A stretch of 63,096 nt of DNA. Source: a virus (taxonomy: Duplodnaviria > Caudoviricetes). Positions within the stretch are counted from its first letter, which is position 1. Each line of letters starts with the position of its first letter. A program made the translations under genes and the position numbers. Below are positions 4,075 through 60,713 of this stretch, in pieces. The notes under the pieces were generated by a model, which worked only from the letters and a program-made list of their open reading frames with translations, was not told the DNA's origin and made no database searches. The DNA lies in IMG/VR virus record IMGVR_UViG_3300008267_000043, positions 1 to 63,096 of that record. One strand, written 5' to 3'.

Positions 4075-4102
4075 TTGACATTGTAAAATTTAGCTGTATC
4101 AT
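4075..4102 (+). promoter_or_regulatory. Sigma70-like promoter
   Basis: TTGACA-16 nt-TATCAT upstream of the RBS of the gene at 4131. Confidence 0.6.
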
Positions 4103-4130: not shown

Positions 4131-4538
4131 ATGACCGAAGAAGTATCGGTAGATAAACTCGTCGCCGTCTACATCAAGATGCGCGACAAAAGGTCTGAAC
4201 TTTTAAAAGAGTATGAGACCGCAGATAGTGGTGTCAAAGAACAGATGGAAGTTGTGGAGGGCAAGTTGCTTGACCTGTGCAAAACCATCGGCGCTGACAA
4301 CATTAAAACCAAGCACGGTACTGTGATTCGTGGTGTCAAAACCCGTTACTGGACAAGTGATTGGGCATCCATGCACAAATTCGTTTTGGAACATCAAATG
4401 CCTGACCTTCTGGAAAAGCGTGTGAGCCAGTCCACCATGAAACAACTGCTGGATGAAAACCCCGACATGATGCCGCCCGGCATGAATGTCGATTCAAAGT
4501 ACTCAGTGACTATAAGGAGAAACGCAAGTGGAAACTGA
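4131..4538 (+). CDS. Hypothetical replication-module protein (N-terminal coiled coil)
   Basis: 135-aa ORF with a strong RBS (AAGGAG). Confidence 0.75.
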   Translation: MTEEVSVDKLVAVYIKMRDKRSELLKEYETADSGVKEQMEVVEGKLLDLCKTIGADNIKTKHGTVIRGVKTRYWTSDWASMHKFVLEHQMPDLLEKRVSQSTMKQLLDENPDMMPPGMNVDSKYSVTIRRNASGN

Positions 4539-4713
4539 AACCCTGACCGTGCAGGAGGTGGCAAATTATTTGCGTGTCTCCCGTCAAACGGTATACGTGA
4601 TGATTCGTGCGGGTCAAATCCCGCATTTCAAAGTGGGCACAAAGGTACGTATCAAACGTGCTGACCTTGAAGCCATGACCAACACCAAACCACAGGAGAA
4701 ACCAAATGAGTGA
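4528..4713 (+). CDS. Excisionase/MerR-type HTH DNA-binding protein
   Basis: LTVQEVANYLRVSRQTVYVMIRAGQIP fits the HTH_17 pattern. Confidence 0.8.
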   Translation: METETLTVQEVANYLRVSRQTVYVMIRAGQIPHFKVGTKVRIKRADLEAMTNTKPQEKPNE

Positions 4714-5858: not shown

Positions 5859-6104
5859 ATGAACAACAGAGGCTATTCAAAGAAATTTGCCACGTCAAAC
5901 AGGCAAGCCGATCAGTCACATGTTGGTGTGCGGTTAGGGCGTGTTTGCATTGACAAGGATATCCCCGTACCGCACGTTGCTGAGTACCTTGGGGTTTCAC
6001 GACAGGCCGTGTATATGTGGTTTTTGGGCAGAGCCACGCCCCACCCAGATATGCGCTTGAAGATCATTGAGATCACCAAAAAACTTAAAGAAACCCAAAC
6101 CTGA
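5859..6104 (+). CDS. Cro/CI-like HTH protein
   Basis: VPHVAEYLGVSRQAVYMWFLG helix-turn-helix. Confidence 0.7.
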   Translation: MNNRGYSKKFATSNRQADQSHVGVRLGRVCIDKDIPVPHVAEYLGVSRQAVYMWFLGRATPHPDMRLKIIEITKKLKETQT

Positions 6105-12300: not shown

Positions 12301-15293
12301 CCATCAAAAATCTGCTGTAACTGGCGAGTTACAGGATGTGAAGGGTTGGCAATGATGTGGGACAGGCCAGCATGAGCTGCTTCGTGCAGGATTTCATACT
12401 CGGTGGCGTTTGTTGGCAGGTAGATTGTGTTGGTCTCTGGGTCGTACTGGGCTTTCTCTGCGCCATACACCAGCTTTACATCGCCCATGAGCTTGGACAA
12501 CACACCAGCAATCTTGCCTGCAAACTCCGATGAGGGGCTGTCAGCCAAAGCATCCAAGGCACCAACCAGATCACCCCGCGCCAAGAGTTCAAGAACCGCA
12601 GGATGTGCCTCAGTGTGCAGTGCGGCAGTCTCTGGGGACGCATCGTATCGGTTACGACCATCATTCACGATGCCATCAAACGCATCATCAGTTGCTTCGC
12701 CAAAGTACACGTCGTCAATGACTTGTTGCAGGGAGGCTTTTTTAGCCGCCTGCTTTTCGGTCTTGACCTGCTCTTTGGTGGCCTTCTTTACTTTTTGCTG
12801 TTTTTCCAGCTTTGCAGTCGCAGTTTGGCTTCTGCGGTTTTCTTTTTCATAAAGGTTAATGTGCTTGTCCAAGAAGCTGACAGCTTCTTTTGACATGTTT
12901 GCACGAACCCAATCAGCAGCTCTTTTCGCATGAATGCCACCTTGTCCTTTAAAAAATTCGGCTTCGGCTTTGGTGCCGAACATCATCTCTGGCTCGCCTT
13001 TCAGCGAGGTCATTTTGGAATTACGGTACGCAGTAGGCTGATACACCAAGTCGTTGGCAATTGATTTCAACGCCAGCTCAGGGAGAACTTTGCCAAAGTA
13101 CGCCTTGGCATCTTTTTCCTCTTGGGTCAGCTTGCCCTTCTTGCCCAGCTTCTCTTGAGCAACGGCTAAATCTTGAGCAAACGTAGCAACAGTCGGTGCT
13201 TTACCTTCTTCGGCAACGGCAATTTCAGTAGCCGTACGAGGAGCCTTCTTTCGTCCTTTAGCAACCACGGGAGCGGCAGGAGCAACAGGAGCAGTGACAA
13301 CAGGAGCAGCTTCATTAGATACCTCGCTTACTGCAACGGCTGGCTGTCCTTCTCCGACAGCAAGCTCTCCAGCATTCTGCTCAGCAGGAACCACTCCATC
13401 TCGTTCAGATGTTGCAGGGGTTTCGGTGGTGGCTCCTGCAACGGGTTCGCTAACCACGCCAGTGCCTCCTCCACTTGTGTCGGTGACAGGTTCTGCAACA
13501 TTTTGATCTCCAAATGCAAACGCACGGGTGGCTGCTTGTTGCTTGGCCTTGGTAGGGGAAGTAACCTCAGCCTTCATTTCTGCGCGGGCATCTTCAACTT
13601 CTTTGCCACGGCCATCAGCATACAGGCTGTCCAAAACTTTGGCGTAGTTTTCTTCGTTAACGTTGGTCATGCCCACTTTGGATGGGTCTTCAATTGTCTG
13701 GATAAATTGGCGCACACCATCAGGTGTTGCCATGTCCACGCCAAGCAGGGAGTTGCCCAGTTTGGATGTGGCTGGGATACGCAGAGCCTTGAGAACATCA
13801 ACGGTCACTGGGTCAGCAGGGGCGTTCGTTGCCCCCATGTCGCCAAACGCGAACCCACGCATACCTTGCTCTTGGCTGACCTTACGTTCAGTCCGCGCCT
13901 TCTCGACCCCGGGGGCAAACATGCCGCCCGTACCGGGTGTTGGCTTGGCAGTTGAGAACGCACTCTCAGCGGCTTTCTTGGCGTCGATGGCGGCAATGTC
14001 GTCTTTGGCTTTCTGTACTTGGGCTTCCAAGTCAGCGTACGCCTGTGAACCGGGACGCTGCTCGTCCATGCGCGAAGCCAAGGCATTGAGTTCCATCTCA
14101 CGGGCTTTGCGTGCCTCGTTGTCTGCGATGGCGGCTTCCATGTCCGCTTGTGTGCGGCCAGCCTTGGGGAACTGCTTGTCAATCTGTTGTTGAAGTGCCG
14201 TGGGGCCACGTGTGGCTTGTGCCGCAGCTTCTGCCTGTGCTTGCGCATCAAGCGCTTCTTTGGCTTCCTTGGTAGTGGCAATGTCTTTCTTGGCTGTGCG
14301 GTACTCCGACACGCCTGTGGGCACACCAAACCCTGCGCCACCGATTGCGCCCTTGACGAACGCTTCTTTATATTGCTGAATGTTTTCAGGGGACAGCAGG
14401 TCTTTTGTGCTGCCCGCAATTTGTTCTGCGTAGGCACCGATGGCCTCTTGCGTAGATTCAGTCAAGCCTTCCGTAGCGGCAGACTTGGTAGCGGCTGTAG
14501 CGATGGACTTCCACACTTTCGGTGCGGCACCGGATTCTTTGGCCAGCTTCTCAATGACCTTCAACTTGCCATAAGGCCCGAGCGTATCCAGCACGTTACC
14601 GGGCACTACTGAGTCCAATGCGGCACTCAAGCCACCTGTCAAGGCAGCAAGGCCGGGTTCAAACTTACCGGTTTCACGGTAGATGCCTTCAAAGATTTCA
14701 GGGGCGTTCTGGGCGTATGAGCCCAAGTACACACCGCCGTACATGCCAGCACGGCCACCAGCTTCAGCAGCTTTTGTAACTCCAGCCAAGGCCGCACGTG
14801 TGGGAGGGCCAGCTTTTGTTGCAGCTTCTAACGCCGCACGTCCAGCAATACGACTACCCACCATGCTGCCGCCAACACCGGGAATGATTGCAGTTGCCGC
14901 AGTGGGCACCAGCTCGCCAAGGGTTTCTGTGGCGTATTGGGCGGCTTCAAATGGACTGGTAACTTCTGTGTACGACTTGAACTGTGTGGGGTATTTGCGC
15001 TCCAACGCCTCGCGGCTGGCCTGCGCTTCATCCATTTGTTGCTTGGAATAGTCTTCAAACCCCAACGCACTGCCAGCCATTGCTGGGAGGGTATCGGCCA
15101 AAGCGATACCTGTTTCCCCCAAAGAACGCATGGCCCCACGTTTAAAAATTGTGCCCAAACTTGCTTCAGGCTTTGGAACTGGGAAATCATATTTTTCCGC
15201 AAGCTTTGTCACCAGTGACTGAAACTGCTCTGGGGATAGCCCATCGGGGAATGAAACATCCCCGATCTTTGGAAACTTAATGATTGTTGGCAT
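9303..15293 (-). CDS. Giant internal virion/ejection protein (polyvalent type) with an HExxH metallopeptidase-like domain
   Basis: 1996 aa, last late gene; ILHEAAH...QEFVAE zincin-like motif. Confidence 0.7.
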   Translation of the reverse strand: MPTIIKFPKIGDVSFPDGLSPEQFQSLVTKLAEKYDFPVPKPEASLGTIFKRGAMRSLGETGIALADTLPAMAGSALGFEDYSKQQMDEAQASREALERKYPTQFKSYTEVTSPFEAAQYATETLGELVPTAATAIIPGVGGSMVGSRIAGRAALEAATKAGPPTRAALAGVTKAAEAGGRAGMYGGVYLGSYAQNAPEIFEGIYRETGKFEPGLAALTGGLSAALDSVVPGNVLDTLGPYGKLKVIEKLAKESGAAPKVWKSIATAATKSAATEGLTESTQEAIGAYAEQIAGSTKDLLSPENIQQYKEAFVKGAIGGAGFGVPTGVSEYRTAKKDIATTKEAKEALDAQAQAEAAAQATRGPTALQQQIDKQFPKAGRTQADMEAAIADNEARKAREMELNALASRMDEQRPGSQAYADLEAQVQKAKDDIAAIDAKKAAESAFSTAKPTPGTGGMFAPGVEKARTERKVSQEQGMRGFAFGDMGATNAPADPVTVDVLKALRIPATSKLGNSLLGVDMATPDGVRQFIQTIEDPSKVGMTNVNEENYAKVLDSLYADGRGKEVEDARAEMKAEVTSPTKAKQQAATRAFAFGDQNVAEPVTDTSGGGTGVVSEPVAGATTETPATSERDGVVPAEQNAGELAVGEGQPAVAVSEVSNEAAPVVTAPVAPAAPVVAKGRKKAPRTATEIAVAEEGKAPTVATFAQDLAVAQEKLGKKGKLTQEEKDAKAYFGKVLPELALKSIANDLVYQPTAYRNSKMTSLKGEPEMMFGTKAEAEFFKGQGGIHAKRAADWVRANMSKEAVSFLDKHINLYEKENRRSQTATAKLEKQQKVKKATKEQVKTEKQAAKKASLQQVIDDVYFGEATDDAFDGIVNDGRNRYDASPETAALHTEAHPAVLELLARGDLVGALDALADSPSSEFAGKIAGVLSKLMGDVKLVYGAEKAQYDPETNTIYLPTNATEYEILHEAAHAGLSHIIANPSHPVTRQLQQIFDGVKADIDGAYGATDLQEFVAEFWSNDSFRTQLSEKYAPGNKLSVWDKIMNVIRRALGFQPKTSESVTDTIDRLLNEIVSVPPDQRTGNTLYAQSIKNPGVVDAIFKGTDYIINNQPLVTPERAAEILGGLEKTGLSLRAFSQRFLNLSALGQVGAKLVGNASVEFADTVNEMAGYYQNLSAKLQPLKERLQEFSQTQNYDFWCDLVNDSTLEDVNPAAPRSKYTGSPEKLAAWDDLNKRYNKLSETEKKLYNDHFASFKVLFKELKDSIRTHMDATFEDKAQAMTAYQKIIDQITKMGIDHYSPLFRSGEYWMQYVDKTTNETVQRLFDTQADRRRAKAEAEAAGHTGIEEYSRVESMKPRNVPRGTVAAQIVKIMKDGGAEDTAVEKFLELIVSALPETSLLKSFQTRKGTPGYERDVAKGFASVTDRTARQLSRMRYNEPLQKLLDEVKEKGAELRGDDAVRAKELWQELESRREFAMNPTFAGWARLASSSAFYFNLAGNVSSAVVNTTSVPLIVLPQLGGTYGFANAGRAILAATKLFGGSGITRKVVDINGQEVEQRGFVSVGMSVENLIGNGKLPQYKDLFGRLDKLGLLVESMAHEALDPKSTEGVAEKVAILSASMFHQAERYNREVTAIAAYELEMAKSGNKEQAIEKAIRLVEFAHGAGHTESGPSIGQSDIGKVLTVFKRFSFTMYYMLFNTIKRSLPVEGATGKELEEIYAARRQLAGIYFIGALFSGVKGLPLYWIAEAAYNATTDDDEEDFDSVMRRYLGEMAFKGPVNYITNLGIADRVGWTDLIYRENKTDKADASALSGIVEAVLGAPYAIVNNFFRAKELIADGHIERGIEAMLPIAIRNVFKGVRYATEGVNTLRGDPVMGEVNGYNAAMQVLGFAPADLLAQYETNAYAKKMGDEIRKQEKSLLKKYYVAQREGDYERANELEDKLYALGEKYPELGITGKTLTASVKARDKISEEMYHGVQLDKKLRPRIEEAIKEFE

Positions 15294-46460: not shown

Positions 46461-46864
46461 AAGCACCGAGGAAACGGGAATGGGTCGAAATGTACACGAA
46501 AAATATATACCGTGCAACAAAGGAGGTAGGGACTCCTAGCCGGGGGGTGTTCTGGGATTGAATACTTAAAGCGCCCGGCTGTAAACTTAAAAGGGGGGAG
46601 GGGGGCTACAACATCTTGTGGTGTGTTGAAACTACATTCGTTAGCGCCTAACTGTGTGGCGTTAAGGTGGCTCAACCTGACCCTACCTGAAATAAGCTGA
46701 CACGAAACTTACTGAGATTCCAAAACTTGGTGGCGTAATGAGCATTTTCGAGTAGTAGTACCTGCCGATGGTACCTAATCCTATATCTGGGGGGTGGGGG
46801 TCGCTGGGGCCGCTCTCTGTGGAAACTTTCGTACGGTACGAAAATGTAACGTCTTAGCTATCCC

Positions 46865-46893
46865 GTGCAAAGCCCTGTAATTTGTGATACAGT
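46865..46893 (+). promoter_or_regulatory. Possible promoter of the first early gene
   Basis: GTGCAA-17 nt-TACAGT with an extended TG. Confidence 0.4.
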
Positions 46894-46951
46894 ATAGGCA
46901 TTGGCTCAGGGATTGGCTCTGAGGCAATAAGCCAAACGAAAGGAATTCATC

Positions 46952-47500
46952 ATGGCTAAAGCAAAACTCTCTATCGTTGCAACCACTGAAACAACTACTT
47001 TGGACAATGCCTCTTTGGCACGTTCAATAGGTGCATCCATCGGCGAAATGAATGCCTTGGAAAACAAGGCGGCACAAATCAAAGCCGAGGCGAATAAGTC
47101 AATTCAGGCTTTGCATAAAAACAAAGTAGTAATTGGCACGTACCGGAAAGACGGCACGGGTTGTTTGGTTGCCACGGCATTTGTTGACGGGTGCACGTCA
47201 AAAGGTATTTCACCAAGCACGGCACAAAAGACTTATTTGCCCACGTTCAAAGCCCACGTTGCATCGGGCAAGGAAGTGATTGATTGGAATAGTCAACGGG
47301 CAAAGAACAAGGGCACCGGCGGCAAAGCCAAAGCCAAAAAAGAATTGGCCGATAAATTGGCCACGTGCTATCGGGATGCTGAATTCGCTGAATTCATCGC
47401 TGATTTGCAAGCATCTTATGACAATGACGAAGGCGATTTGATAACGTGCATCGAATCCTACTTGGAAATGAACGGCATCAAAACCAAAACCGCTGAGTAA
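46952..47500 (+). CDS. Hypothetical protein, first early gene (monocistronic)
   Basis: 182 aa; AAGGA RBS; has its own terminator. Confidence 0.75.
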   Translation: MAKAKLSIVATTETTTLDNASLARSIGASIGEMNALENKAAQIKAEANKSIQALHKNKVVIGTYRKDGTGCLVATAFVDGCTSKGISPSTAQKTYLPTFKAHVASGKEVIDWNSQRAKNKGTGGKAKAKKELADKLATCYRDAEFAEFIADLQASYDNDEGDLITCIESYLEMNGIKTKTAE

Positions 47501-47511
47501 GTAAAAACCCT

Positions 47512-47539
47512 AAGCCCTGCGAAAGCAGGGCTTTTTTTT
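47512..47539 (+). terminator. Rho-independent terminator
   Basis: AGCCCTGC-GAAA-GCAGGGCT followed by a T-tract. Confidence 0.9.
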
Positions 47540-47624
47540 CGCCCAAAATTTCCCGCATCAACTACATGCCACGGAATGAGCTTGTGCCTAATCTAATCAC
47601 ACCACAACAAGTTATTTCTAAGAT

Positions 47625-47769
47625 ACCTGTTCCCTCTACGTTGGCCGCACTGCCCTGCACGCCGTTACACCACGTTGCGTTACAGATGCTATACGTTATT
47701 ACGTCCTGCACTTTCGTACTGTACGAAAGTCAAACCCCCGAAACCTGTTCCCTCTACGTTGGCCGCACT
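47625..47769. repeat. 27-bp perfect direct repeat, two copies
   Basis: ACCTGTTCCCTCTACGTTGGCCGCACT at 47625 and 47743. Confidence 0.9.
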
Positions 47770-47824
47770 ATGCGTGGGAAGTAGCACTTTCGTACCGTAC
47801 GAAAGCCTTTTTGATTGTCAACCT

Positions 47825-48169
47825 GTTATATTGTCTATTTTGTCCAGCAATATTCTTGCCACAAGAATAAAACAAACCCCAATAGGCATGGGACTTTCCA
47901 AGGGAAAAGGTATGTATTATTCTATTATTCTATAAAATATATATATACACCCCCATTTTATTTTTTCTTTTTGTACTTATCCACAGGGCGCATGTTCTTT
48001 TTTATTTTTTCTTGGTCTCGTTCTCGCTCGTCCGTTTTTCTCTCTCACATCCCCATTTTTCGAGAATAAAGGAATATTACAAGAAAAATCACCTCGCAAC
48101 CCGCACCAATCCTCATCTTTCTATTATACTTATGGCAGGAATATTGCTGAACAAAATAGACAATATAAC
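47825..48169. repeat. 41-bp inverted repeat around an AT-rich core (origin-like)
   Basis: Arms 47825-47865 and 48129-48169 match at 38/41; TTATCCACA at 47977-47985. Confidence 0.8.
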
Positions 48170-48217
48170 TTCCTAAACTCTCAACACACCCAACCAACCA
48201 AAAGGAGAAACCCAACC

Positions 48218-48622
48218 ATGACCAAACAAACCCCATCAACACTTCCATATCTCTCTGACTACGCACGTGGCAAACTACTCACCGAGGCTGGCATCAAGAA
48301 CGCCAAGGGACTGCACTACCACCGACTGCGGAACTCCAAACCAAACAGCGACCCCAACAACAAACCCACCACACGAACCACCAGCACCACCAAGCGACCT
48401 GTGAAGTGCATACAGACTGGCGAAGTGTTTGAGTCCATCCACGCATGTGCCCGAGCACACGACCTCACACCATCCAACCTATGCGCTCACCTCAAGGGCA
48501 AACTGTATGCGGTGAAGAAGCGTCAGTACAAGTACACCACGGACAGCCAGCTCAAGCTACATCAGAAACGGAATAAAACACCAGCCAACACCACACAGCT
48601 ACAACTTGACAAGAACATGTAA
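48218..48622 (+). CDS. NUMOD1-like HTH DNA-binding protein
   Basis: KRPVKCIQTGEVFESIHACAR...SNLCAHLKGK. Confidence 0.6.
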   Translation: MTKQTPSTLPYLSDYARGKLLTEAGIKNAKGLHYHRLRNSKPNSDPNNKPTTRTTSTTKRPVKCIQTGEVFESIHACARAHDLTPSNLCAHLKGKLYAVKKRQYKYTTDSQLKLHQKRNKTPANTTQLQLDKNM

Positions 48623-48634
48623 ATCCCCTATAAT
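48606..48634 (+). promoter_or_regulatory. Consensus sigma70 early promoter
   Basis: TTGACA-17 nt-TATAAT, a perfect match. Confidence 0.9.
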
Positions 48635-48730
48635 TAAGGCTCATTCGGAATAAATCTGTTTTGAATGACTCGGCAACTTTCGTACGGTACGAAAGCCTGA
48701 GAAACAAGGTCAAATGAAAAGGGATACATC

Positions 48731-48904
48731 ATGAAACTGACCAAGCAACAACGTGGTGCGCTCAAGCGCAAGTGGGAACGGGACAACCAAGGTATGAGTT
48801 ACCTGCAATTCAGGCGCACAGTCGTGCAGGGGTTCGACTGCATCATGGTGCCGTGGTGTGGGATGTGGCTCGGTATTGAGCTGGACGGATACACACATTC
48901 ATAA
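48731..48904 (+). CDS. Small early protein (57 aa, ...WCGMWLGIELDGYTHS)
   Basis: Translated by hand; first ORF after the promoter. Confidence 0.65.
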   Translation: MKLTKQQRGALKRKWERDNQGMSYLQFRRTVVQGFDCIMVPWCGMWLGIELDGYTHS

Positions 48905-48915
48905 GGGGTTACAAC

Positions 48916-49119
48916 ATGTTGACAAACGAATTCGACACAGCGGATGGCAAGTACACCATCAAGAGCTACGGCAATGGCTGGGCGTATGAGGTGGTGGATA
49001 TTGGGACAGGTGAATCGTTGTGGTTTCAAGACCATGCCGCAAGCCAGTTGCAAACGGATACCAACGACTTTGAGGACACCTGCACCATCGACCAATACTT
49101 TGAATGTTTGGAGGGCTGA
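48916..49119 (+). CDS. Hypothetical early protein
   Basis: ORF with RBS in a tightly packed operon. Confidence 0.65.
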   Translation: MLTNEFDTADGKYTIKSYGNGWAYEVVDIGTGESLWFQDHAASQLQTDTNDFEDTCTIDQYFECLEG

Positions 49120-49121
49120 CC

Positions 49122-49373
49122 ATGAAACTCAAATTTGAAATGACGGACACGTTCGCAGGGGAAGCCAACTATTCATGGGTCAAACGTGGTGAGGCCATCG
49201 TGCCTGACTCTGCCACTGACCTGAGCATCGTGCACAAGGCCAAGAAATGGGCTGGCCTGAAAGGTGTACGCACCATCACTGAGAAGTATGGTGACTTCAT
49301 GGCCATACGTTGTATCGGTGCATGTTTGGTGGTGTTTATCAACTTTGACTATGAGAATGATTGGAGGGAATGA
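49122..49373 (+). CDS. Hypothetical early protein
   Basis: TDTFAGEANYSWV; GGAGG RBS. Confidence 0.65.
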   Translation: MKLKFEMTDTFAGEANYSWVKRGEAIVPDSATDLSIVHKAKKWAGLKGVRTITEKYGDFMAIRCIGACLVVFINFDYENDWRE

Positions 49374-49540
49374 GTATGTATAGCTTTGAATGTTTTTGGA
49401 AGATGAAGCGCATGACTGTGCAAGCGGCAACAAGTTATGACGCACAACGCAAGGCCGCACTGCTGTGGGGTATCGGACGCAGGTCATGGGATGTGACTGT
49501 GATGCGAGCTGATGTTGGGCACGATGGGGCTGTGCTGTGA
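49370..49540 (+). CDS. Small early protein (56 aa)
   Basis: Translated by hand; coupled start/stop overlaps on both sides. Confidence 0.55.
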   Translation: MSMYSFECFWKMKRMTVQAATSYDAQRKAALLWGIGRRSWDVTVMRADVGHDGAVL

Positions 49541-49812
49541 AGGTGCTGATTGAGATTGATACGGATGAGATTGTCAGCAAGATGCTGGAGTTGGGTGCAG
49601 GTGAGTACATGTTCTCGGGTGAATTCTGGGATGTGATGGCTGAGCTGTATCCAACCGTGACGACTGAGGTGCATGAGGAAGTGACCCGACTGCACAACGC
49701 AGTGCAAGCCGTGGCTGATGCTGGCACGGAGAACATGCGGGCATGGTTCACCGCTGAGGAACTGAACGCCCACGTGGACAAGTTTATTTATGGAAACGGA
49801 ATTGAAAGGTAA
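49537..49812 (+). CDS. Hypothetical acidic early protein
   Basis: 91 aa, rich in E/D. Confidence 0.6.
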   Translation: MKVLIEIDTDEIVSKMLELGAGEYMFSGEFWDVMAELYPTVTTEVHEEVTRLHNAVQAVADAGTENMRAWFTAEELNAHVDKFIYGNGIER

Positions 49813-49816
49813 TCAA

Positions 49817-49993
49817 ATGAACAAACTGGAACGCAAGCAACTGAACGAGCGAAAAGAAAATCAAAGGTACACACGTGACAACATGTTGTGGATTGGTATG
49901 GCTACACAAACTACTGGTTCGCCAGTGAAGTACAACGCCAAGAAAGAGAAAGCACTTTCGTACCGTACGAAAGATGTGGATGGGTGGAAATGA
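49817..49993 (+). CDS. Small early protein
   Basis: AAGG RBS; contains palindrome copy 5. Confidence 0.5.
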   Translation: MNKLERKQLNERKENQRYTRDNMLWIGMATQTTGSPVKYNAKKEKALSYRTKDVDGWK

Positions 49994-50397
49994 TGGGCAA
50001 GAAGGACTACGACACGTCCCATCTCAGATACATAGCAATGAAACAGGGGAACTACATGAGTAACAAGATGATTGCAAACGGCAAGGCACGGAACATGGTG
50101 GATATCAAGGCCGCATTCAGGGGCAGTAATGTGTGGGCTGAGTGGGGGCGCAACGCATACGACCAGAAGTTGTATGTCGTGTACAGCTACCGATACACGT
50201 GGCCGCTGTATGTATATGACGAGACTGCTGACACGTGGTACGAGAACTGCAACCAGTACAGCCAGACCACCAGCCGACACCGTACCCAGTGCAGACCCAC
50301 GGGTGTGAAGACCATACCGTTAGGCACGGATGACATGCGGTTGGTTGCCACGTGTGGCGGTGTTGGGTTGATTGAACGTGCGAATAAGGAGGAGTGA
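49990..50397 (+). CDS. Hypothetical early protein (start uncertain)
   Basis: YVVYSY..WPLYVY...YSQTTSRH. Confidence 0.65.
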   Translation: MMGKKDYDTSHLRYIAMKQGNYMSNKMIANGKARNMVDIKAAFRGSNVWAEWGRNAYDQKLYVVYSYRYTWPLYVYDETADTWYENCNQYSQTTSRHRTQCRPTGVKTIPLGTDDMRLVATCGGVGLIERANKEE

Positions 50398-50630
50398 GCA
50401 TGAAGAATGAACATAAAGATTGTGTGGTGTGTGGTGATGACGTGCCGCTGCCCCGGTGGCGCTTGGGGTATCGCATATGTTTATTTTGTGGGGAAGAAAA
50501 CGCGAGGATGGAAAGGAAAAGCTGGACTGTGGTGCAGGAGTATCAGAAGGGTGGGTACATGTTCATCACGCCAGCGGCAGTAAGTACCACGCTGAAACAA
50601 ACAAACCAAAAGAACTTGAGAGGAGATTGA
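50394..50630 (+). CDS. DksA/TraR-like C4 zinc-finger protein
   Basis: CVVCG...RW.LG.RICLFC. Confidence 0.55.
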   Translation: MSMKNEHKDCVVCGDDVPLPRWRLGYRICLFCGEENARMERKSWTVVQEYQKGGYMFITPAAVSTTLKQTNQKNLRGD

Positions 50631-50631
50631 T

Positions 50632-50838
50632 ATGACGTTTACTGAATTGGAATACTGTTTGATGCTGGCCGTAGCTGTGCTGTTATGGCGCAACAGTGTG
50701 TTGCAGGGCAGGTTGCACCACATGACCGCACGTGCTGACAGATACGTGGAGTACTTGTTGGGTGTGCACCGTGGCGAGGGGCGTGTGGTGGAGGATGACA
50801 ACGGGTTCAGGTACGAGCAGAGGAAGGAAGCGAAATGA
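50632..50838 (+). CDS. Small membrane-anchored protein
   Basis: N-terminal hydrophobic helix. Confidence 0.55.
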   Translation: MTFTELEYCLMLAVAVLLWRNSVLQGRLHHMTARADRYVEYLLGVHRGEGRVVEDDNGFRYEQRKEAK

Positions 50839-50934
50839 ATGGAGACAACCCCCGATTACTTTGTCAGGATTGCTCTGTCCCGCTGTTCCGTTGGTTCTTA
50901 TCAAGGATTGACTCTATGCGGGTGCTCAAACAAC

Positions 50935-50963
50935 TTGACAAGTATGTGTAAAGCTGTTATACT
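50935..50963 (+). promoter_or_regulatory. Sigma70 promoter of the AAA/VWA operon
   Basis: TTGACA-17 nt-TATACT with an extended TG. Confidence 0.85.
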
Positions 50964-51033
50964 ATGGGCTTGTTAGTTAGTAATGTGTGTAAGTTAATCA
51001 ACAACGGTTTCGTACCGTACGAAAGGGAACAAC

Positions 51034-51903
51034 ATGGAACAAGTAAACGTAAGTAAGTTATCAGGCTCAGCCCTGATTGTGAATCTGTCACTGTCCGTAT
51101 GGACTGGCCGCAAGCTGGACAAGCGGGTGAGTGAGGAGGTTGACCAAGCCAAGTCAACCAAGACCCGTGCAGGTAACTACCACAAGAACCTGCTGGCTGG
51201 CTCAGGCAAGCTGGAGGAAATCACCAAGGTTGCCAACGCTGTGCGTACATGGCACTACACGGTGACTCAGCCTTGGGGTGACAACGGCGACCGTGTGCTG
51301 AACATGGCGTCATTCATGGACTACAAGTCACGGCTGGCGGAGTACGAGACTCAGTTTGCCACTGCTGTCAACATGTTTCTGAATGAGTACGACACGCTGG
51401 TTGCGGCGGCGGCGTTCCAACTGGGTGACTTGTTCAACCGTGAGGACTACCCACTGCGTGAGCAGATTGTGGACAAGTTTGGTTTCAGGTATGCGTTCAC
51501 GCCACTGCCGATGGCGGGTGACTTCCGTATTGACATTGGTGAGGAGGGACTGCGTGAGATGCAAGACCACTACGAGGGTGTGTTGACCACACGGCTCAAC
51601 GATGCGATGCGTGATGCGTGGGACAGGTTGCATGATGTGTTGTCACGTATGAGTGAACGACTGGCTGATGACGATGGTGGCAAGCGCAAGATTTTCCGTG
51701 ACTCGCTTGTTGAGAACGCCATCGAGGTGTGCGGGTTACTGCGTCACTTCAACATCACTGGTGACACACGGTTGGAGGCACTGCGTATGCAGTTGGAGGA
51801 CACGATGCGTGGCGTGGATGCGGCATCGTTGCGAGAGAGTGACATGTTGCGTGAGCAGACCAAGCGCAAGGTGGACTCTATGTTGGAGAAGTTTTCTCTG
51901 TGA
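51034..51903 (+). CDS. DUF3150-like helical protein
   Basis: LSVWTGRKLD...T.PW...LFNREDYP...FNITGD; precedes the AAA/VWA pair. Confidence 0.55.
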   Translation: MEQVNVSKLSGSALIVNLSLSVWTGRKLDKRVSEEVDQAKSTKTRAGNYHKNLLAGSGKLEEITKVANAVRTWHYTVTQPWGDNGDRVLNMASFMDYKSRLAEYETQFATAVNMFLNEYDTLVAAAAFQLGDLFNREDYPLREQIVDKFGFRYAFTPLPMAGDFRIDIGEEGLREMQDHYEGVLTTRLNDAMRDAWDRLHDVLSRMSERLADDDGGKRKIFRDSLVENAIEVCGLLRHFNITGDTRLEALRMQLEDTMRGVDAASLRESDMLREQTKRKVDSMLEKFSL

Positions 51904-51978
51904 TTTTCGTACCGTACGAAAGTTGTTTTTGTGTAAGTGTTGGGGTACAACCCGTACCCCGTTTGAAAGGAAGTAATC

Positions 51979-53064
51979 ATGGCTATGTATAAATCTCTGT
52001 CTCTGCAACAAACTGCTGACCTGATTGGTGCAGTGGGTGACGTTCAAACAATCTTGGCTCAGGGTGAAATGGGTATTGGCAAGTCGTCCATGCTCAAGAT
52101 GTTGCGAAACAATCCCAAGTTCAAGAACCACATGTTCTGTTACGTGGACATCACAACCAAGGATGTTGGTGACTTCGTTGTCCCCAAGATTCGCACGGTG
52201 GATGGTGTTGAGGTGTGCTCGTTCATTCCAAACGAGGAGTTCGGTATGCACTTGGTGGACACACCCATCATGATGATGCTGGATGAGTTGGGCAAGGCCA
52301 AGGGCGGTGTGATGAACGCATGTTTGCGGCTGATGCAGGAACGTGCACTGGGTACGTATACCCTGCACCCTGACTCTGTGGTGTTTGCCACAACTAACTT
52401 GAGCGTAGAGGGTATCGGTGACAACGTGCCACCACATGCTCGAAACCGTGTGACTCAGGTACGTGTAGCCAAGCCTACGGCTGATGAGTGGATAGGGTAT
52501 GCCATCAACAACGGTGTGAACCCCATCGTCATCGCCACTGTGCAAGAGTTCCCTGAGATGCTGGCATCGTTTGAGGACTATGAACGCCCCGAGCAGAACA
52601 CGTATGTGTATGACCCACGTGATGTACGTATGTCGTTCGTGACACCACGTTCATTGGAGAAAGCTGGTCACATCATTTCTCGCACGATGGTGTTGGGTGA
52701 CGATGTGCTGTGCCATGCGTTGAAGGGTACGGTGGGTGAGAAGGCCATGCACAACATGTTGACGATGGTGAAGATGGACACACAGTTGACTAATTGGGAT
52801 GACCTGATTAAATCCCCTGCGACTGCGACTGTGCCTACCAGTGCGGCGGCGGCATGTATGTTGGTGGCCAAGGCTGTGCAACGTATTGAGAAGGCATCCA
52901 TTGATTCATGGATGGAGTTTCTCCCACGTATGAGCAAGGAATCCCAAGGCTTGTTTGCACGTAGTGTGATGAGCGAGCTGTGCCCCAAACGTACTGTGGC
53001 GGCAACCAATCCCAAGTTTGCCAAGTGGGCGGCTGACAACAACTATTTGTTTGCCAAGAAGTAA
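51979..53064 (+). CDS. AAA+ ATPase (MoxR/dynein-related type)
   Basis: Walker A GEMGIGKS, Walker B MMLDE, TTN sensor, NR finger and TPRS. Confidence 0.85.
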   Translation: MAMYKSLSLQQTADLIGAVGDVQTILAQGEMGIGKSSMLKMLRNNPKFKNHMFCYVDITTKDVGDFVVPKIRTVDGVEVCSFIPNEEFGMHLVDTPIMMMLDELGKAKGGVMNACLRLMQERALGTYTLHPDSVVFATTNLSVEGIGDNVPPHARNRVTQVRVAKPTADEWIGYAINNGVNPIVIATVQEFPEMLASFEDYERPEQNTYVYDPRDVRMSFVTPRSLEKAGHIISRTMVLGDDVLCHALKGTVGEKAMHNMLTMVKMDTQLTNWDDLIKSPATATVPTSAAAACMLVAKAVQRIEKASIDSWMEFLPRMSKESQGLFARSVMSELCPKRTVAATNPKFAKWAADNNYLFAKK

Positions 53065-53094
53065 TCAACATTCGTACCGTACGAAAGGAATAAC

Positions 53095-54273
53095 ATGTTT
53101 GTAACAACAACACAATCATTACCCGCAATCAAGCGGATTGAACGTGCACACGTAGAGTTGATGGCTCACAAGGCCACGATGGAATACGCTGGCATCATCA
53201 TGGTCGGCAAGTACAAGGTGGTGGACAACATCCCCACCGCATGTACCAACGGCATCGACTGTCTGTATGGCAAAGAGTTCACCGAGAAGTTGCCCGAGGC
53301 TGAGTTGCGTGGTGTCATCCTGCATGAGAACCTGCACAAGACTTTCCAACATACATTCCTGTGGCGGCATCTGTATGAGGAGAACGCACGGTGTGCAAAC
53401 ATGGCGTGTGACTACGTAATCAACTTACTAATCCACGACATTGAGAAATCATCCAACGGGTTTGTTGTACTGCCCAAGGTGGGTCTGCTTGATGAACGCT
53501 TCCGTGACATGGACTCCCAAGAGGTGTTCCGCATCCTGATGGACGAGGGGCAGGGCGAGGGTAACGGTGACGGTGGTGAGGGCGCTGGCCTTGACTCCCA
53601 TGATTGGGACACATCGGGCATGACACAGGAAGAAGTTGAACAGCACGTCAAGGAGGTCAACCAAGCCATCCGTCAAGGTCAACTGCTGGCTGGCAAGATG
53701 GGCGGCAAACAATCCCGTGAGTTGGGTGACTTGGTTGAACCCAAGGTTGACTGGCGTGAACAACTGCGTGACTTCGTGAATTCACTGGCTGACGGTAAAG
53801 ATATATCCACGTGGCAACGTGTCAACCGCCGCTGGCTTCAACATGACATGTACATGCCAAGCACTTTGAGTGAGAGCATGGGACGCATGGTGATTGCCAT
53901 CGACACATCGGGCTCTATCGGTGGTGAGGACTTGAACAAGTTCTTGTCCGAGGTGCAGTCAATCTGTATGAACGTGCAACCCGAGCTTGTTGACTTGTTG
54001 TATTGGGACACCGAGGTGGCAGGTCATGAGGTGTATGGACGTGACACACAGGACAAACTTGTGAAGTCAACCAAACCTGCTGGCGGTGGCGGCACTGACC
54101 CGTCGTGTATCCCTGAGTACATCGAGGCCAAGGGGCTCAAGCCTGACTGCGTGGTGGTGCTGACTGACGGCTACGTGGGGTCATGGGGTACGTGGAAACA
54201 TCCCGTGCTGTGGGCGGTGTGTGGTGGGTACAAGCCAACACCATCCGTGGGCGTGGCAATCTACGTTGATTAA
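53095..54273 (+). CDS. HExxH metallopeptidase-like + VWA protein (DUF2201-type)
   Basis: TACTNG and LHENLH; MIDAS DTSGS, GGGT and LTDG. Confidence 0.85.
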   Translation: MFVTTTQSLPAIKRIERAHVELMAHKATMEYAGIIMVGKYKVVDNIPTACTNGIDCLYGKEFTEKLPEAELRGVILHENLHKTFQHTFLWRHLYEENARCANMACDYVINLLIHDIEKSSNGFVVLPKVGLLDERFRDMDSQEVFRILMDEGQGEGNGDGGEGAGLDSHDWDTSGMTQEEVEQHVKEVNQAIRQGQLLAGKMGGKQSRELGDLVEPKVDWREQLRDFVNSLADGKDISTWQRVNRRWLQHDMYMPSTLSESMGRMVIAIDTSGSIGGEDLNKFLSEVQSICMNVQPELVDLLYWDTEVAGHEVYGRDTQDKLVKSTKPAGGGGTDPSCIPEYIEAKGLKPDCVVVLTDGYVGSWGTWKHPVLWAVCGGYKPTPSVGVAIYVD

Positions 54274-54306
54274 TTTGGGAACAGGTATCTTTGAACAGGA
54301 GGTTTT

Positions 54307-55299
54307 ATGCCAAGCGCAAAAGAGTTTAAACACACACGGTACAGCGGCTGGTATGGGTACAGCGTACGCACCAACAACTTAACAGAAGCCAAAGCCAAGT
54401 TTGAGAGCACCAAGCCCGTCCAAGGCACACGTAAAAAACATGGCTGTGAGATTCGCCCACTGGCAAAACGTGCCCGTATATGGGAAGCGTGGCATCACGA
54501 TGAAGCCACAGGAAGTTATGGCATGGCGTTTGTCAGGTCGTACCCAATACTTGTACAGGCGGGTGCAAACAAAACGATTTCCCGTTTCGATAAGGAAGTT
54601 AATCCAGTGTTGATGTGGCATCCTGATGGGCGGTTGGTGTTTAGCCCCATGTACATGTACAGCTACACCACGTGGGAGATGTTGGCGACGTTGTTACCTG
54701 ATGGCATTACGTTTGTGAAGTACGGTGCGAAGCCTTACTTCAAGTTGGATACGCCAGAGGGTAAGCCCGTGTACATGCACAGCCCTATGGGTGTGACCAT
54801 GACTTTCGTACCGTACGAAAAGGAAGGCAAACAGTATTTCCACCTAACTACACCCTACCCTGAGCAGAAGATTCTGATTGACAAAGAAGCGTCCAAGGTG
54901 GTGCGTGGTGAGGCCAAAGCGTTCTTTGAGTACGCAGAGACTATGTGGGGGTTGATGACTGCGGATATTGATGTTGAAAACCTTGCTTCAGTGACATGGG
55001 CTGGCAGGCGTCAGTACGAAGACCTTTTGCTCAGCAACTGGTTGTCACGTAGTAAGGGCGAAGAAATAGGTGGGCGTTGGGCTGATGCGATTAACGCTTT
55101 CATAAAGATGAACACCCGTGTACGTTTCAAGTACGACAGGGACGCACTCGAAATGGAAAAAAATGTGTACGTCCCAACCGTAGAGGACATTAGAGACAGG
55201 CTACGTGGCGAGAGGTTGAACCGTATCACCAAGCCGTACCGTCTGGTTGATGTGCCGTTGGGCGAACCGTTCTTTGACAACGGGAGAGGTAATGAATAA
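54307..55299 (+). CDS. Hypothetical protein
   Basis: 330 aa, AGGAGG RBS. Confidence 0.75.
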   Translation: MPSAKEFKHTRYSGWYGYSVRTNNLTEAKAKFESTKPVQGTRKKHGCEIRPLAKRARIWEAWHHDEATGSYGMAFVRSYPILVQAGANKTISRFDKEVNPVLMWHPDGRLVFSPMYMYSYTTWEMLATLLPDGITFVKYGAKPYFKLDTPEGKPVYMHSPMGVTMTFVPYEKEGKQYFHLTTPYPEQKILIDKEASKVVRGEAKAFFEYAETMWGLMTADIDVENLASVTWAGRRQYEDLLLSNWLSRSKGEEIGGRWADAINAFIKMNTRVRFKYDRDALEMEKNVYVPTVEDIRDRLRGERLNRITKPYRLVDVPLGEPFFDNGRGNE

Positions 55300-55378
55300 C
55301 GAAGCTGTTTGGTTGACAGTGGTGTGCGTTGTTGCACTGGCTGTTGTTGTGTTGGATGTATTTTTCTGGAGGGTATGA
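55292..55378 (+). CDS. 28-aa single-TM peptide
   Basis: MNNEAVWLTVVCVVALAVVVLDVFFWRV; GAGG RBS; overlaps both neighbours. Confidence 0.5.
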   Translation: MNNEAVWLTVVCVVALAVVVLDVFFWRV

Positions 55379-56256
55379 GCATGATGAAACGAGAAGAATA
55401 TCTGGGCCTGTATAGCTACGACAGATACCAAGATGTTTACACGACTGCAAAAGACAACGACCACCGGCATTGGATTGGTGACGTGCCAGTTGCTCTCAAC
55501 TTGGTGAAGTTTTTCACTGAGCTGAAATTCAAACGCCCTGACATTGTGTTGCGTGTGGACAAGCGTCCAGCAAGATACAACGGGTTGGAGTACACCGTGT
55601 TTGCTGATGTAGGTATTGGCTTCAAGGATGCGCCTGAGTTGGTGTGTGGGTTCATTGGTATAGACATGGACAAAGACCGCAACATCTTGTTCACCGTAAC
55701 GTCAGACCGTATCAAGAATGAGAAGTACGCCGCACACAGTGACGGATACCGTATCAAGTCCACCAAGAACTTTGCCAATGCGGTGAAGAACGCCTTGCAG
55801 TACATCAAGCCCACGTCATTTGATGAGCTGATAGACCACACTGGCAGTGACTTAGAACGTGCCGTACACAAGCTGAGAGCCCCCTCTGATGAGAAGCTGT
55901 ACAACGCCACGAACATTGGCAAGTCAATCATCTCAGAGGAACTACGCAACATGATTGCAACAGGGTACACACCTGCAACCGAGTCATTCAAACGTGCTGT
56001 GAAGCTGTTACAGGATGAGGGTGATGAGATTAAGCGCATGATTAACTACAAGCCCCGCAAGTGTTTCGTGTGGGCAAAGCCTGACCGTGTGCTGTATCGG
56101 ATTGATGATGAGGAATCCTGCATTGTGTTCAACCTACAAGATGTTCCTGAGCACATCAGAGACAAGATTGCCGTGTTGCAGATTGGTAGCAACGGGTCAG
56201 CCATTGTGGACGTTGGGCTCAAAGTCAGCGACAGCATGTATTGGGTGTTCGTATGA
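55375..56256 (+). CDS. Hypothetical protein
   Basis: GGAGG RBS before ATG 55375. Confidence 0.7.
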   Translation: MSMMKREEYLGLYSYDRYQDVYTTAKDNDHRHWIGDVPVALNLVKFFTELKFKRPDIVLRVDKRPARYNGLEYTVFADVGIGFKDAPELVCGFIGIDMDKDRNILFTVTSDRIKNEKYAAHSDGYRIKSTKNFANAVKNALQYIKPTSFDELIDHTGSDLERAVHKLRAPSDEKLYNATNIGKSIISEELRNMIATGYTPATESFKRAVKLLQDEGDEIKRMINYKPRKCFVWAKPDRVLYRIDDEESCIVFNLQDVPEHIRDKIAVLQIGSNGSAIVDVGLKVSDSMYWVFV

Positions 56257-59145: not shown

Positions 59146-59305
59146 AGTAATCAGAACATTTTTTGGCAGGGTGCGTGGGCAACACCGAGAAAAAGAAACC
59201 GTAGTTGTTGAAGGGAAGATGTGGCGCTGTACTCAATGCCAGATGATTTTTATAACCAAGTCAGCAGGAGAACAGCATCAATGCCAAGACCAAAAAGTGA
59301 GTTGA
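59138..59305 (+). CDS. Small zinc-finger protein (55 aa)
   Basis: Translated by hand: WRCTQC...EQHQC; GGAGG RBS. Confidence 0.55.
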   Translation: MLEVIRTFFGRVRGQHREKETVVVEGKMWRCTQCQMIFITKSAGEQHQCQDQKVS

Positions 59306-59478
59306 CTGACAACTGCAAAATCATAGGCGTTCGATTAACACAATGGGAGTTTGAAGAATGGAAGAAGTTGGGTGCACAGAAGTGGCTACGAAAGTTGTTA
59401 AAAGAAAGCAAGCTAAAAGCCGTCCCGTCATTGAGCAACTACTTGCAAGAAACGAATGGAACCCGTTTGAAAGAGTAG
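59281..59478 (+). CDS. Ribbon-helix-helix-like DNA-binding protein
   Basis: MPRPK...IGVRLT..E...WKKLG..KWLRKLL. Confidence 0.5.
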   Translation: MPRPKSELTDNCKIIGVRLTQWEFEEWKKLGAQKWLRKLLKESKLKAVPSLSNYLQETNGTRLKE

Positions 59479-60086: not shown

Positions 60087-60713
60087 ATGGGAACAATCGC
60101 AGATGAACTGAAAAAAGTTATGACTCAATGGGACAACACGTCCACAACCGAAACCAACGCAAAGGAAACAACAGTGAACACAACCACAAATAACTCTGAA
60201 CAACGCATGACTATCCGTGACAAGTTGATGCTCATCCTCAACGCCAACCCCGGTGTGAACGGTGTAGAACTCTGTGACTTGACAGCAGAAAGATACCCCG
60301 AAGTTTCAAAGGGCTCGCTCACGTCCACCATAACTCAGCTTGCACAACAGCACTACGCGACACGCAAGCCAGCCACCGTCAACAACCGTGCATCGTATTG
60401 CTACTACCCAGTGGATGACTCGACACGCAAGGCGCTGGTGGCAGAGGAAGAACGTCAGTTGAAACTTGCCCGTGCCCGTGCAGAGAAAGCCCGTGCCGCC
60501 AAAGCCGCCAAAGCCGCTGAGAGACAAGCTGAGGTTGAACCCAACGAACCTGCGCCAGTTGTTACGCAAGCACCTGCACCTGCGCCTGCGCCCACACCAG
60601 AACCTGCGCCAATCATCAAGTCAACGTGGGATGCGAAGACTGCACTGGAAGGCATCAGTGTGTTGCAAGCACGTGAGCTGTACAACGAGCTGAAAAACAT
60701 TTTTGGCAACTGA
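60087..60713 (+). CDS. Winged-helix-like protein with a Pro/Ala linker
   Basis: ILNANPGVNGVEL...SLTSTITQL; C-terminal SVLQARELYNELK. Confidence 0.55.
   Translation: MGTIADELKKVMTQWDNTSTTETNAKETTVNTTTNNSEQRMTIRDKLMLILNANPGVNGVELCDLTAERYPEVSKGSLTSTITQLAQQHYATRKPATVNNRASYCYYPVDDSTRKALVAEEERQLKLARARAEKARAAKAAKAAERQAEVEPNEPAPVVTQAPAPAPAPTPEPAPIIKSTWDAKTALEGISVLQARELYNELKNIFGN

Follow-up and report, generated by a model that had tools for sequence, protein, structure and literature searches.

In the virus record IMGVR_UViG_3300008267_000043, the whole of which (63,096 bases) constitutes the window analyzed here, nine copies of a palindrome with the 15-bp core TTCGTACNGTACGAA (TTCGTAC-N-GTACGAA) were found within a single 8-kb block of the early region, and the form of this palindrome in related phages was found to follow a single residue of the protein encoded by the first early gene, located at 46952-47500 (the 46952 protein). 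Based on comparative sequence evidence, we propose, with a probability of about 0.45, that the nine palindromes serve as double-stranded DNA operators for a homodimer of the 46952 protein, which would block the host RNA polymerase and shut off the 8-kb early region. The window is the complete, circularly assembled genome of an uncultured environmental freshwater podophage, and its first 61 bases recur at its end as a prefix-suffix overlap.

An exact search located eight copies of the 17-mer TTTCGTACNGTACGAAA in the window, at 46827, 47712, 47788, 48678, 49956, 51008, 51905, and 54804, and 100 dinucleotide shuffles yielded a mean of 0.00 copies. Upon allowing up to three mismatches, one extra site was recovered at 53070 (ATTCGTACCGTACGAAA), which has one mismatch at the outermost base (0.13 expected in 63,096 bases). 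The core is thus present nine times, eight times as part of a perfect 17-mer, and the array spans 46827-54820 with no further site elsewhere in the window even with three mismatches. The centre base was C in six sites, G in two, and T in one. As listed in Table 1, seven of the sites are intergenic or lie in 5' leaders. No sequence common to the copies was detected beyond 10 nucleotides (nt) on either side, and an origin of the repeats from a mobile element was therefore ruled out.

The initial annotation, which had been made from this DNA alone, reported nine perfect palindromes with invariant arms and a centre of C, G, or T, confined to the first 8 kb of the early region. The nine cores, the invariant arms, and the confinement were all confirmed by the genome-wide scan, whereas the copy at 53070 proved to be imperfect at its outermost base; the positions given as 47710, 47787, 48677, and 49955 were off by one or two bases, that given as 53071 should be 53070, and the others were right. 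Two copies had been placed about 45 bp past the -10 boxes of strong promoters, two over the ribosome-binding sites (RBSs) of genes 51034 and 53095, and one after a stop codon, and all of these placements held. As for the two sites thought to lie in coding sequence, the one read as FVPYE was retained, but the open reading frames (ORFs) underlying the other, read as SYRTK, are probably not genes. Finally, clustering near a genome end was not established, because in a circular assembly with a 61-bp overlap the end beside the cluster is a presumption.

Table 1. Coordinates of the palindromes, the first early gene, and the associated transcription signals in the window.
Feature	Position	Strand	Remarks
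Palindrome 1 (TTTCGTACGGTACGAAA)	46827..46843	.	divergent intergenic region; about 30 nt past the G-run; 109 nt 5' of the start of gene 46952
First early gene, proposed palindrome-reading homodimer, 182 residues	46952..47500	+	helix 88-105 bears the putative specificity residue T94
Strong intrinsic terminator, 9-bp stem, T8	47512..47533	+	closes the one-gene transcription unit of 46952
Palindrome 2	47712..47728	.	in non-coding stretch 47540-48217; preceded by a copy of the repeat ACCTGTTCCCTCTACGTTGGCCGCACT
Palindrome 3	47788..47804	.	followed by CCTTTTTGATTG (terminator-like)
Consensus sigma-70 early promoter TTGACA-17-TATAAT	48606..48634	+	12/12 matches; conserved in 7 relatives
Palindrome 4	48678..48694	.	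centre at +45 of the predicted start, promoter 48606-48634
Palindrome 5	49956..49972	.	5' of where gene 49888-50397 probably starts
Near-consensus sigma-70 early promoter TTGACA-17-TATACT with TG	50935..50963	+	11/12 matches
Palindrome 6	51008..51024	.	centre at +46 of promoter 50935-50963; right arm overlaps the GAAAGG RBS of gene 51034
Palindrome 7	51905..51921	.	begins 2 nt past the stop of gene 51034-51903; followed by a T-run
Palindrome 8 (ATTCGTACCGTACGAAA)	53070..53086	.	perfect 15-bp core; overlaps the RBS of gene 53095
Palindrome 9	54804..54820	.	within gene 54307-55299, read as FVPYE

The array was found to be maintained in relatives of the phage. The exact 17-mer occurred in 75 stretches on 23 IMG/VR contigs, mostly many per contig, and five long relatives (four about complete and one 72% complete), which align to the window at 72-74% nucleotide identity over 28-33 kb, carried 16, 16, 10, 9, and 10 copies of the 15-mer, all with no mismatch although one was allowed; a reversed control pattern gave no copies in these genomes. 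In the window and these relatives, six genomes with 70 sites in total, none of the 14 specified positions of the core varied, and the flanks were drifting. The centre base was A in 14 sites, C in 31, G in 13, and T in 12, and the flanks showed a mirror-symmetric preference, R-S-T on the 5' side of the core and A-S-Y on the 3' side. The block of sites was 8-13.5 kb wide in the relatives, and palindrome 1 had an orthologous site with the same flanking boxes. As judged from these comparisons, the array appears to be a strongly selected trait of the whole phage family.

To place the motif in a wider range of phages, 80 loci around terminase relatives (66-89% identity) were fetched, of which those with long early flanks were informative, and repeated palindromes were called as 6-nt arms with gaps of 0-4 in at least three copies or as 10-11-mers in at least four copies. 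In other lineages, the same region carried other palindromes, namely TTCATAC-N-GTATGAA in 7-12 copies; CTAACA-W-TGTTAG (e.g., CCTAACA-W-TGTTAGG) in up to 16 copies, as well as CTAACA-NN-TGTTAG; CGACAT-N-ATGTCG with longer arms; TTTAGT-N4-ACTAAA; and one form with 10-nt arms and a 5-nt centre. The layout was common to the lineages, with the first site past a conserved G-run beside terS, others after terminators, others at 37-78 nt downstream of consensus promoters, others touching RBSs, and a few conserved intragenic sites.

Genomes with the CGTAC motif (G..C) are hereafter designated A-type and those with the CATAC motif (A..T) B-type. The two variants were not mixed, in that six A-type genomes contained 70 G..C sites, five B-type genomes contained 36 A..T sites, and no hybrid was present. 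Even the intragenic palindrome 9 was retained in all A-type relatives and was replaced by the B variant in the B-type relatives.

Three genes, 46952-47500, 4528-4713, and 55309-56256, were present in all sufficiently complete A- and B-type genomes and undetected in the C-type and motif-free genomes. In the 46952 protein as found in 22 IMG/VR loci and four genomes, all A-type sequences had T at residue 94 (QK-T-YL), and all B-type sequences had V or N. The association was without exception in a set of 62 unique proteins, from which identical proteins and those shorter than 120 residues had been removed: residue 94 was T in 43/43 A-type proteins, and V (16) or N (3) in 19/19 B-type proteins. The runner-up among the 162 columns was position 88, with five errors, and positions 86-89 were partly associated. 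In a tree built without column 94, the motif type changed eight times, and residue 94 switched in the same way in 5/5 independent pairs on well-supported branches, column 94 being the only one to follow the motif in all five. In the linked genes TerS (202 usable columns) and TerL (514) from the initial set of loci, no perfectly associated column was found. Residue 78 (V/I) had looked diagnostic in 25 sequences, and with 10 errors in the 62 proteins it is now regarded as only partially associated.

The pairing extended to 59 added metagenome loci, where 41 loci with T94 had 139 G..C sites, two A..T sites, and two odd sites, and 17 loci with V94 had 67 A..T sites and no G..C site; residue 94 was unreadable in one locus. 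The exceptions in T94 contigs (L409:1665, L410:2013, L421:2036, and L453:1333) comprised a B-type site among A-type sites, shared in position by two near-identical contigs, together with a hybrid TTCATAC-N-GTACGAA and a TTCCTAC-N-GTACGAA. These exceptional sites may be decaying or transitional.

It is improbable, in our estimation, that the palindromes are read by another phage protein, such as the helix-turn-helix (HTH) protein HTH_17 4528-4713 or the Cro-like HTH protein 5859-6104, with the association of residue 94 arising from linkage or chance. The former clearly contains a DNA-binding domain (HTH_17, E 6e-19), shows 62-84% conservation, and is likewise restricted to A- and B-type genomes; the latter gave a weak HTH_3 match, and at one of its columns (Y43) six A-type genomes differ from three B-type genomes. 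However, their HTH regions, i.e., the recognition helix of 4528 (SRQTVY) and the helix SRQAVYMWFLG in 5859, were identical in A- and B-type genomes, although with only three B-type copies of each this is a weak test. Furthermore, homologues of 5859 were also present in G009 and G010, genomes without palindromes, and HTH_17 proteins usually read direct repeats rather than palindromes.

Two other proteins were also considered as readers and rejected. The recognition region of the winged HTH-like protein 60087-60713 varied among A-type genomes with an identical motif. The zinc-ribbon protein 50394-50630 had looked diagnostic of the A and B types with three B-type genomes, and its C1-type copy was nearly the same as the A-type copy, so that it does not track the motif. 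This protein consists of 78 residues with CxxC-x17-CxxC spacing, which we take to resemble that of TraR/DksA zinc ribbons; it lacks an N-terminal coiled coil, gave no Pfam hit, and was present in 29/31 early regions compared. The 48218 product was confined to this genome, one 25% match apart, and ORF 59221-59478 had no homologue in the relatives.

The initial annotation had envisaged binding sites for a dimeric, phage-specific protein, and had anticipated relatives in which a different palindrome at equivalent places co-varies with one gene. The latter was found as described above, and the former is supported by the comparative evidence, by the tracking of residue 94, and by the homodimer prediction below, with the binding itself being inferred. 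Among the six binders it had proposed, the 46952 protein tracked the motif variant, whereas 4528, 5859, and 60087 did not, and 48218 was essentially restricted to this genome. The motif had not been recognized there as a host box, which agreed with the host scan described below.

Homologues of the 46952 protein form 210 clusters, none of which is named or has a Pfam domain, and no homologue was found in cultured phages. Its AlphaFold model was all-helical with a mean predicted local distance difference test score (pLDDT) of 77.7, and consisted of a long helix (19-56), helices 72-83 and 88-105 (pLDDT 86-93), a disordered Lys/Gly-rich linker (119-130), and three C-terminal helices. A homodimer was predicted with a score of 0.78 against 0.00 for the best control, with runs agreeing in at least 94% of contacts and a partner pLDDT of 78. 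In the calibration of the tool, this mark was reached by 20/30 solved pairs and 1/23 single chains, counts which hold roughly here since our own alignment was used. Two leads from a protein atlas, DUF3102 and Phage_Repressor_c, had no backing in hidden Markov model scans and were discarded.

Whether the reader could instead belong to the host was assessed by scanning 185,579 species of bacteria and archaea, with one genome per species. Only 51 stretches with the motif were found, as single scattered hits over many phyla with the exception of one contig, and hence no host carried a motif cluster in this collection, which perhaps does not include the true host. The exceptional contig, JAIXXE010000033.1 (L223-L227; 9,096 bp), is binned in an alphaproteobacterial pond metagenome-assembled genome and contains eight palindrome copies; it is probably a phage of this group, and its placement could reflect mis-binning or give a hint of the host. 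The lack of a host cluster, together with the lineage-specific palindromes, indicated that the reader is phage-encoded.

We therefore regard it as very improbable that the palindromes are sites for a host protein such as a global regulator or a nucleoid protein, or that they serve an injected virion RNA polymerase as hairpin promoters, in the manner of phage N4, since the variants switch between close relatives along with a phage residue. The early promoters of N4 lie within the first kilobases of its genome and form hairpins with 3-nt loops, and the 1996-residue virion protein encoded here shares its C-terminal 700 residues with giant injected proteins (PHROGs 10089 and 11358). However, this protein had no RNA polymerase match in sequence-based searches of PDB sequences or Pfam. 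In addition, the centre base of the palindromes is free, the sites are strand-symmetric, consensus sigma-70 promoters already serve the region, and initiation at the RBS-overlapping sites would yield transcripts without those RBSs.

The transcription signals around the sites bear on what the bound protein would do. The early region has no strong promoters other than those at 48606-48634 and 50935-50963, and each of the two is followed at about 44 nt by a palindrome (48678 and 51008, respectively). This placement was fixed: in 8/8 A- and B-type genomes, the early region had exactly two consensus promoters, each with a palindrome centred at +34 to +46, which points to a role in transcription. 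Gene 46952 constitutes a short transcription unit by itself, delimited by the strong terminator, and its product is therefore probably among the first phage proteins made. In the mechanism we propose, this product would accumulate early, and each subunit of the dimer would read one half-site, 5'-R-S-T-TTCGTAC, with residue 94 in helix 88-105 reading the fourth base pair from the centre. Bound dimers would then block the host RNA polymerase about 45 nt past each of the two consensus promoters, and the remaining sites, between genes and once within one, would act as extra roadblocks. A third strong sigma-70-type promoter (TTGACA-16-TATCAT, 4075-4102), which is conserved in G002, G003, G004, G005, and G007, lies 5' of gene 4131 and has no palindrome after it.

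A phage protein might also read the motif on DNA for a different purpose, namely the loading or coating of the DNA that enters first, as an entry ratchet, for second-step transfer, for nuclease protection, or as a parS/KorB-like centre by the packaging genes. The sites do form one block starting about 30 nt past the conserved G-run beside terS, the intragenic sites are conserved, the putative reader is the product of the very first gene, and the KorB operators of plasmid RK2 are likewise all identical. We nevertheless consider this explanation unlikely, since a protein made after entry cannot aid the entry of its own gene, the 61-bp assembly overlap leaves the true ends unplaced, and no ParB-like domain was found in any ORF scanned. 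The fixed position of two sites behind consensus promoters in eight genomes is also at odds with it and favors a role in transcription.

As every early gene is on the + strand, every site is transcribed, and the motif could alternatively act as an RNA hairpin with an 8-bp stem and a CNG loop, through which a phage protein, possibly the 46952 product itself, represses translation, processes or stabilizes polycistronic mRNA, or ends transcription. GAAAGG lies directly 5' of the ATGs at 51034 and 53095, and hairpins at 51008 and 53070, which extend into this sequence, would sequester these RBSs, as would similar overlaps in other lineages. Moreover, lineages E and H have 9-10-nt arms and 4-6-nt centres that resemble stem-loops, and a sense-strand G-T wobble in the outer arm is seen, by our own reading, at two or three of the five lineage D sites. 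In two public runs of RNA libraries, Logan contigs of a relative with about 94% identity were found, one of which (3,076 nt) corresponds to 50632-53255 and runs across three palindromes, although such contigs show no transcript ends and may stem from DNA carry-over, and they were given no weight here.

Against such an RNA hairpin, the arms were not extended by covariation: Watson-Crick pairs at ±9 were found in 31/70 sites against 33.5 expected, and at ±10 in 20 against 24.2 (permutation). The flank preferences were symmetric (-10 R with +10 Y and -9 S with +9 S) and the two flanks of any one site were not complementary to each other. Any base is accepted in the loop, and lineage E has a 4-nt centre that reads, on one strand, CAAA three times, TTTG three times, and TTAA once, i.e., in both orientations. 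G..T sites, which would form G-U pairs in RNA, were absent among 106 sites and again among the 59 further loci (with one A..C hybrid). The RNA hairpins of the core were weak (-3.7 to -8 kcal/mol), and two of five were no better than shuffles; the minimum-energy fold at 51008 was not the palindrome, and the z-score at 53070 was 0.06. When tested as intrinsic terminators, only 2/9 sites (47788 and 51905) were followed by a T-run and the stems had three G-C pairs, so that the sites were not classed as such. The distance to the next start codon ranged from 17 to several hundred nt, and neither an Rfam nor a tRNA match was found over the whole window. Taken together, we judge the ligand to be probably DNA rather than RNA, and the hairpin explanation to be quite unlikely.

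Several observations weigh against operators read by the 46952 protein. The protein had no Pfam or PHROG match and belonged to no DNA-binding family; its best Foldseek match had E = 1, and its best VIA match, chorismate mutase (Z 5.1), falls short of significance for a helical protein. The interface of the modelled dimer contains helix 72-81 and residues 91, 95, and 99, which leaves the geometry of DNA contact uncertain. A sign test on the five independent pairs gave p 0.0625, with low formal power, and cassette recombination around residues 86-94 could inflate the independence of the pairs, although recombination of this kind would implicate this segment just as well. First-gene families from different lineages were similar in size and position and had no detectable homology (hhalign probability 0.9% and 0.2%). 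Five lineages (G009, G010, L111, L112, and L159) had a first early gene and no repeated palindrome under the search described above. Moreover, the HTH_17 protein shares the restriction to A- and B-type genomes, the RBS overlaps and T-runs are also compatible with a role in RNA, and it is unusual for operators of graded affinity to be perfectly identical at all sites.

No description of these palindromes was found in the literature, supplements being outside the search, and they were therefore compared with known multi-site systems. The stoperators of cluster A mycobacteriophages (L5) and of Streptomyces R4-like phages are described as numerous, almost identical binding sites of a single phage repressor, located at promoters and in short gaps between genes and proposed to stop both initiation and elongation, and their variants as co-evolving with the repressor toward new specificities (PMC9283540, PMC10276819, PMC6550527). 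The present sites are similar in being near-identical, with nine copies of which seven are intergenic or in leaders and two are at +45 and +46 of promoters. In contrast, stoperators are 13-bp asymmetric sites that are read by a monomer, are oriented with transcription, and extend across a whole temperate genome, whereas the present ones are orientation-free 15-21-bp palindromes with a predicted homodimer reader, confined to one 8-kb block of a genome in which no integrase or lysogeny module was found. L5 gp71 has an N-terminal HTH and a stoperator domain, while the 46952 protein had no family match and no fold match above noise; distant kinship is still possible.

Multi-copy inverted repeats in the early region are also known from the Streptomyces phage phiC31, a temperate phage and in this respect apparently unlike the present one, whose conserved inverted repeat (CIR) of 17 bp has many highly conserved copies in early intergenic regions, some next to terminators, and is bound by the repressor c. 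A comparison of Phage_Repressor_c (PF25746) with the 46952 family gave an atlas score of 0.77, a weak lead, and 0/31 members matched at E up to 10. The operators of lambda Cro and CI are likewise palindromic, measure about 17 bp, and have a central base pair that is not contacted; they are read by dimers of small early regulators encoded beside the control region. Unlike the present phages, which have 9-16 identical sites mostly away from promoters, lambdoid phages carry graded operators, 3 + 3 at two promoters, and the 46952 protein is not a recognizable HTH member.

The KorB operators (OB) of plasmid RK2 comprise about a dozen near-identical palindromes with an odd centre and variable promoter distances, and the present array likewise has multiple near-identical, odd-centred palindromes. 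In KorB and ParB-parS systems, a dimer reads the operators and silences genes (PMC11790492, PMC13768133). In contrast, the present case concerns a phage rather than a plasmid, and nothing suggests a clamp dependent on cytidine triphosphate (CTP); no Pfam hit to a ParB/KorB-type domain (the ParB N-terminal CTPase) was obtained among about 100 ORFs scanned, very small or unscanned ORFs being outside the scope. By analogy, the present system would seem to work most like the repressor-stoperator systems, the CIRs of phiC31, and the KorB operators of RK2, yet to belong to none of the systems compared.

As for the remainder of the genome, the + strand, between 46952 and (across the end of the window) 9023, encodes small early genes and then a DNA polymerase, a nuclease, an SNF2 helicase, and a primase, while the - strand encodes, from 46520 down to 9303, TerS, TerL, the portal, the capsid, an SU10-type adaptor, tail and ejection proteins, the giant 1996-residue protein, and a lysis module. 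PHROGs and Pfam scans of the window ORFs revealed no integrase or immunity module. The closest named phages by terminase were uncultured or aquatic podophages with at most 57% identity, and near-identical DNA was absent among 50,697 phage records. In the giant virion protein (9303-15293, - strand), the last approximately 700 residues matched giant injected proteins (phrog_10089 "DarB-like," E 1e-74), and no match was found for the first 1200 residues.

Among the early genes, a trio at 51034-54273 encodes a 289-residue protein, a MoxR-like ATPase (phrog_1297), and a DUF2201 metallopeptidase/VWA protein, and was kept in nearly all lineages irrespective of the presence of palindromes. A long inverted repeat (47815-47850 and 48140-48176) encloses about 300 nt of AT-rich, ORF-free DNA just 5' of gene 48218-48622, whose product gave a weak match to the DNA-binding part of homing endonucleases (phrog_314, E 3.5e-4); this stretch and the gene together look like an inserted element.

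Additional short sequences were noted near individual palindromes. A G-run GGGGGGTGGGG (46789-46799) and a box CTATCCCGTGCAA (46858-46870), each present once in the window, flank palindrome 1, and the G-run beside terS was kept even in lineages with other palindromes; the G-run is a candidate for a packaging or end signal. Two direct copies of ACCTGTTCCCTCTACGTTGGCCGCACT (47620-47650 and 47740-47770) in the non-coding stretch 47540-48217 each lie 20-65 nt 5' of a palindrome, and similar boxes (ACCTGTATCCT... and CCAGTTCCC..GCGG) precede palindromes in relatives and C-type lineages. Such boxes could represent a second promoter type or the start of a small RNA. The sequence GTGTAAGT occurs at 50987 and 51931, i.e., 21 nt 5' of palindrome 6 and 10 nt 3' of palindrome 7, and related TGTGTAAG(T/G)T boxes were located at the same places in relatives.

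Multi-copy arrays of invariant operators are known mainly from temperate actinophages and plasmid RK2, and the present array belongs to an abundant uncultured freshwater group without lysogeny genes. The pairing of T94 or V94 with CGTAC or CATAC offers a natural test of specificity, independent of the host, in which one residue corresponds to one base pair. A more far-reaching picture, which we consider doubtful at present, is that the first early gene of a widespread, apparently virulent group of uncultured freshwater podophages encodes a new fold of sequence-specific DNA-binding dimer that silences its own early region via 9-16 identical operators, that the change from T94 to V or N has repeatedly re-targeted it from G:C to A:T, and that the palindromes define immunity-like groups among lytic phages. 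If this were true, a resident phage could silence early genes in a co-infecting relative that belongs to its own group and not in one that belongs to another. Confirmation of the pairing would provide a new DNA-recognition fold, an insight into early shut-off or cross-silencing between competing phages, and a sequence signature by which metagenomic phages could be sorted into groups of regulatory specificity.

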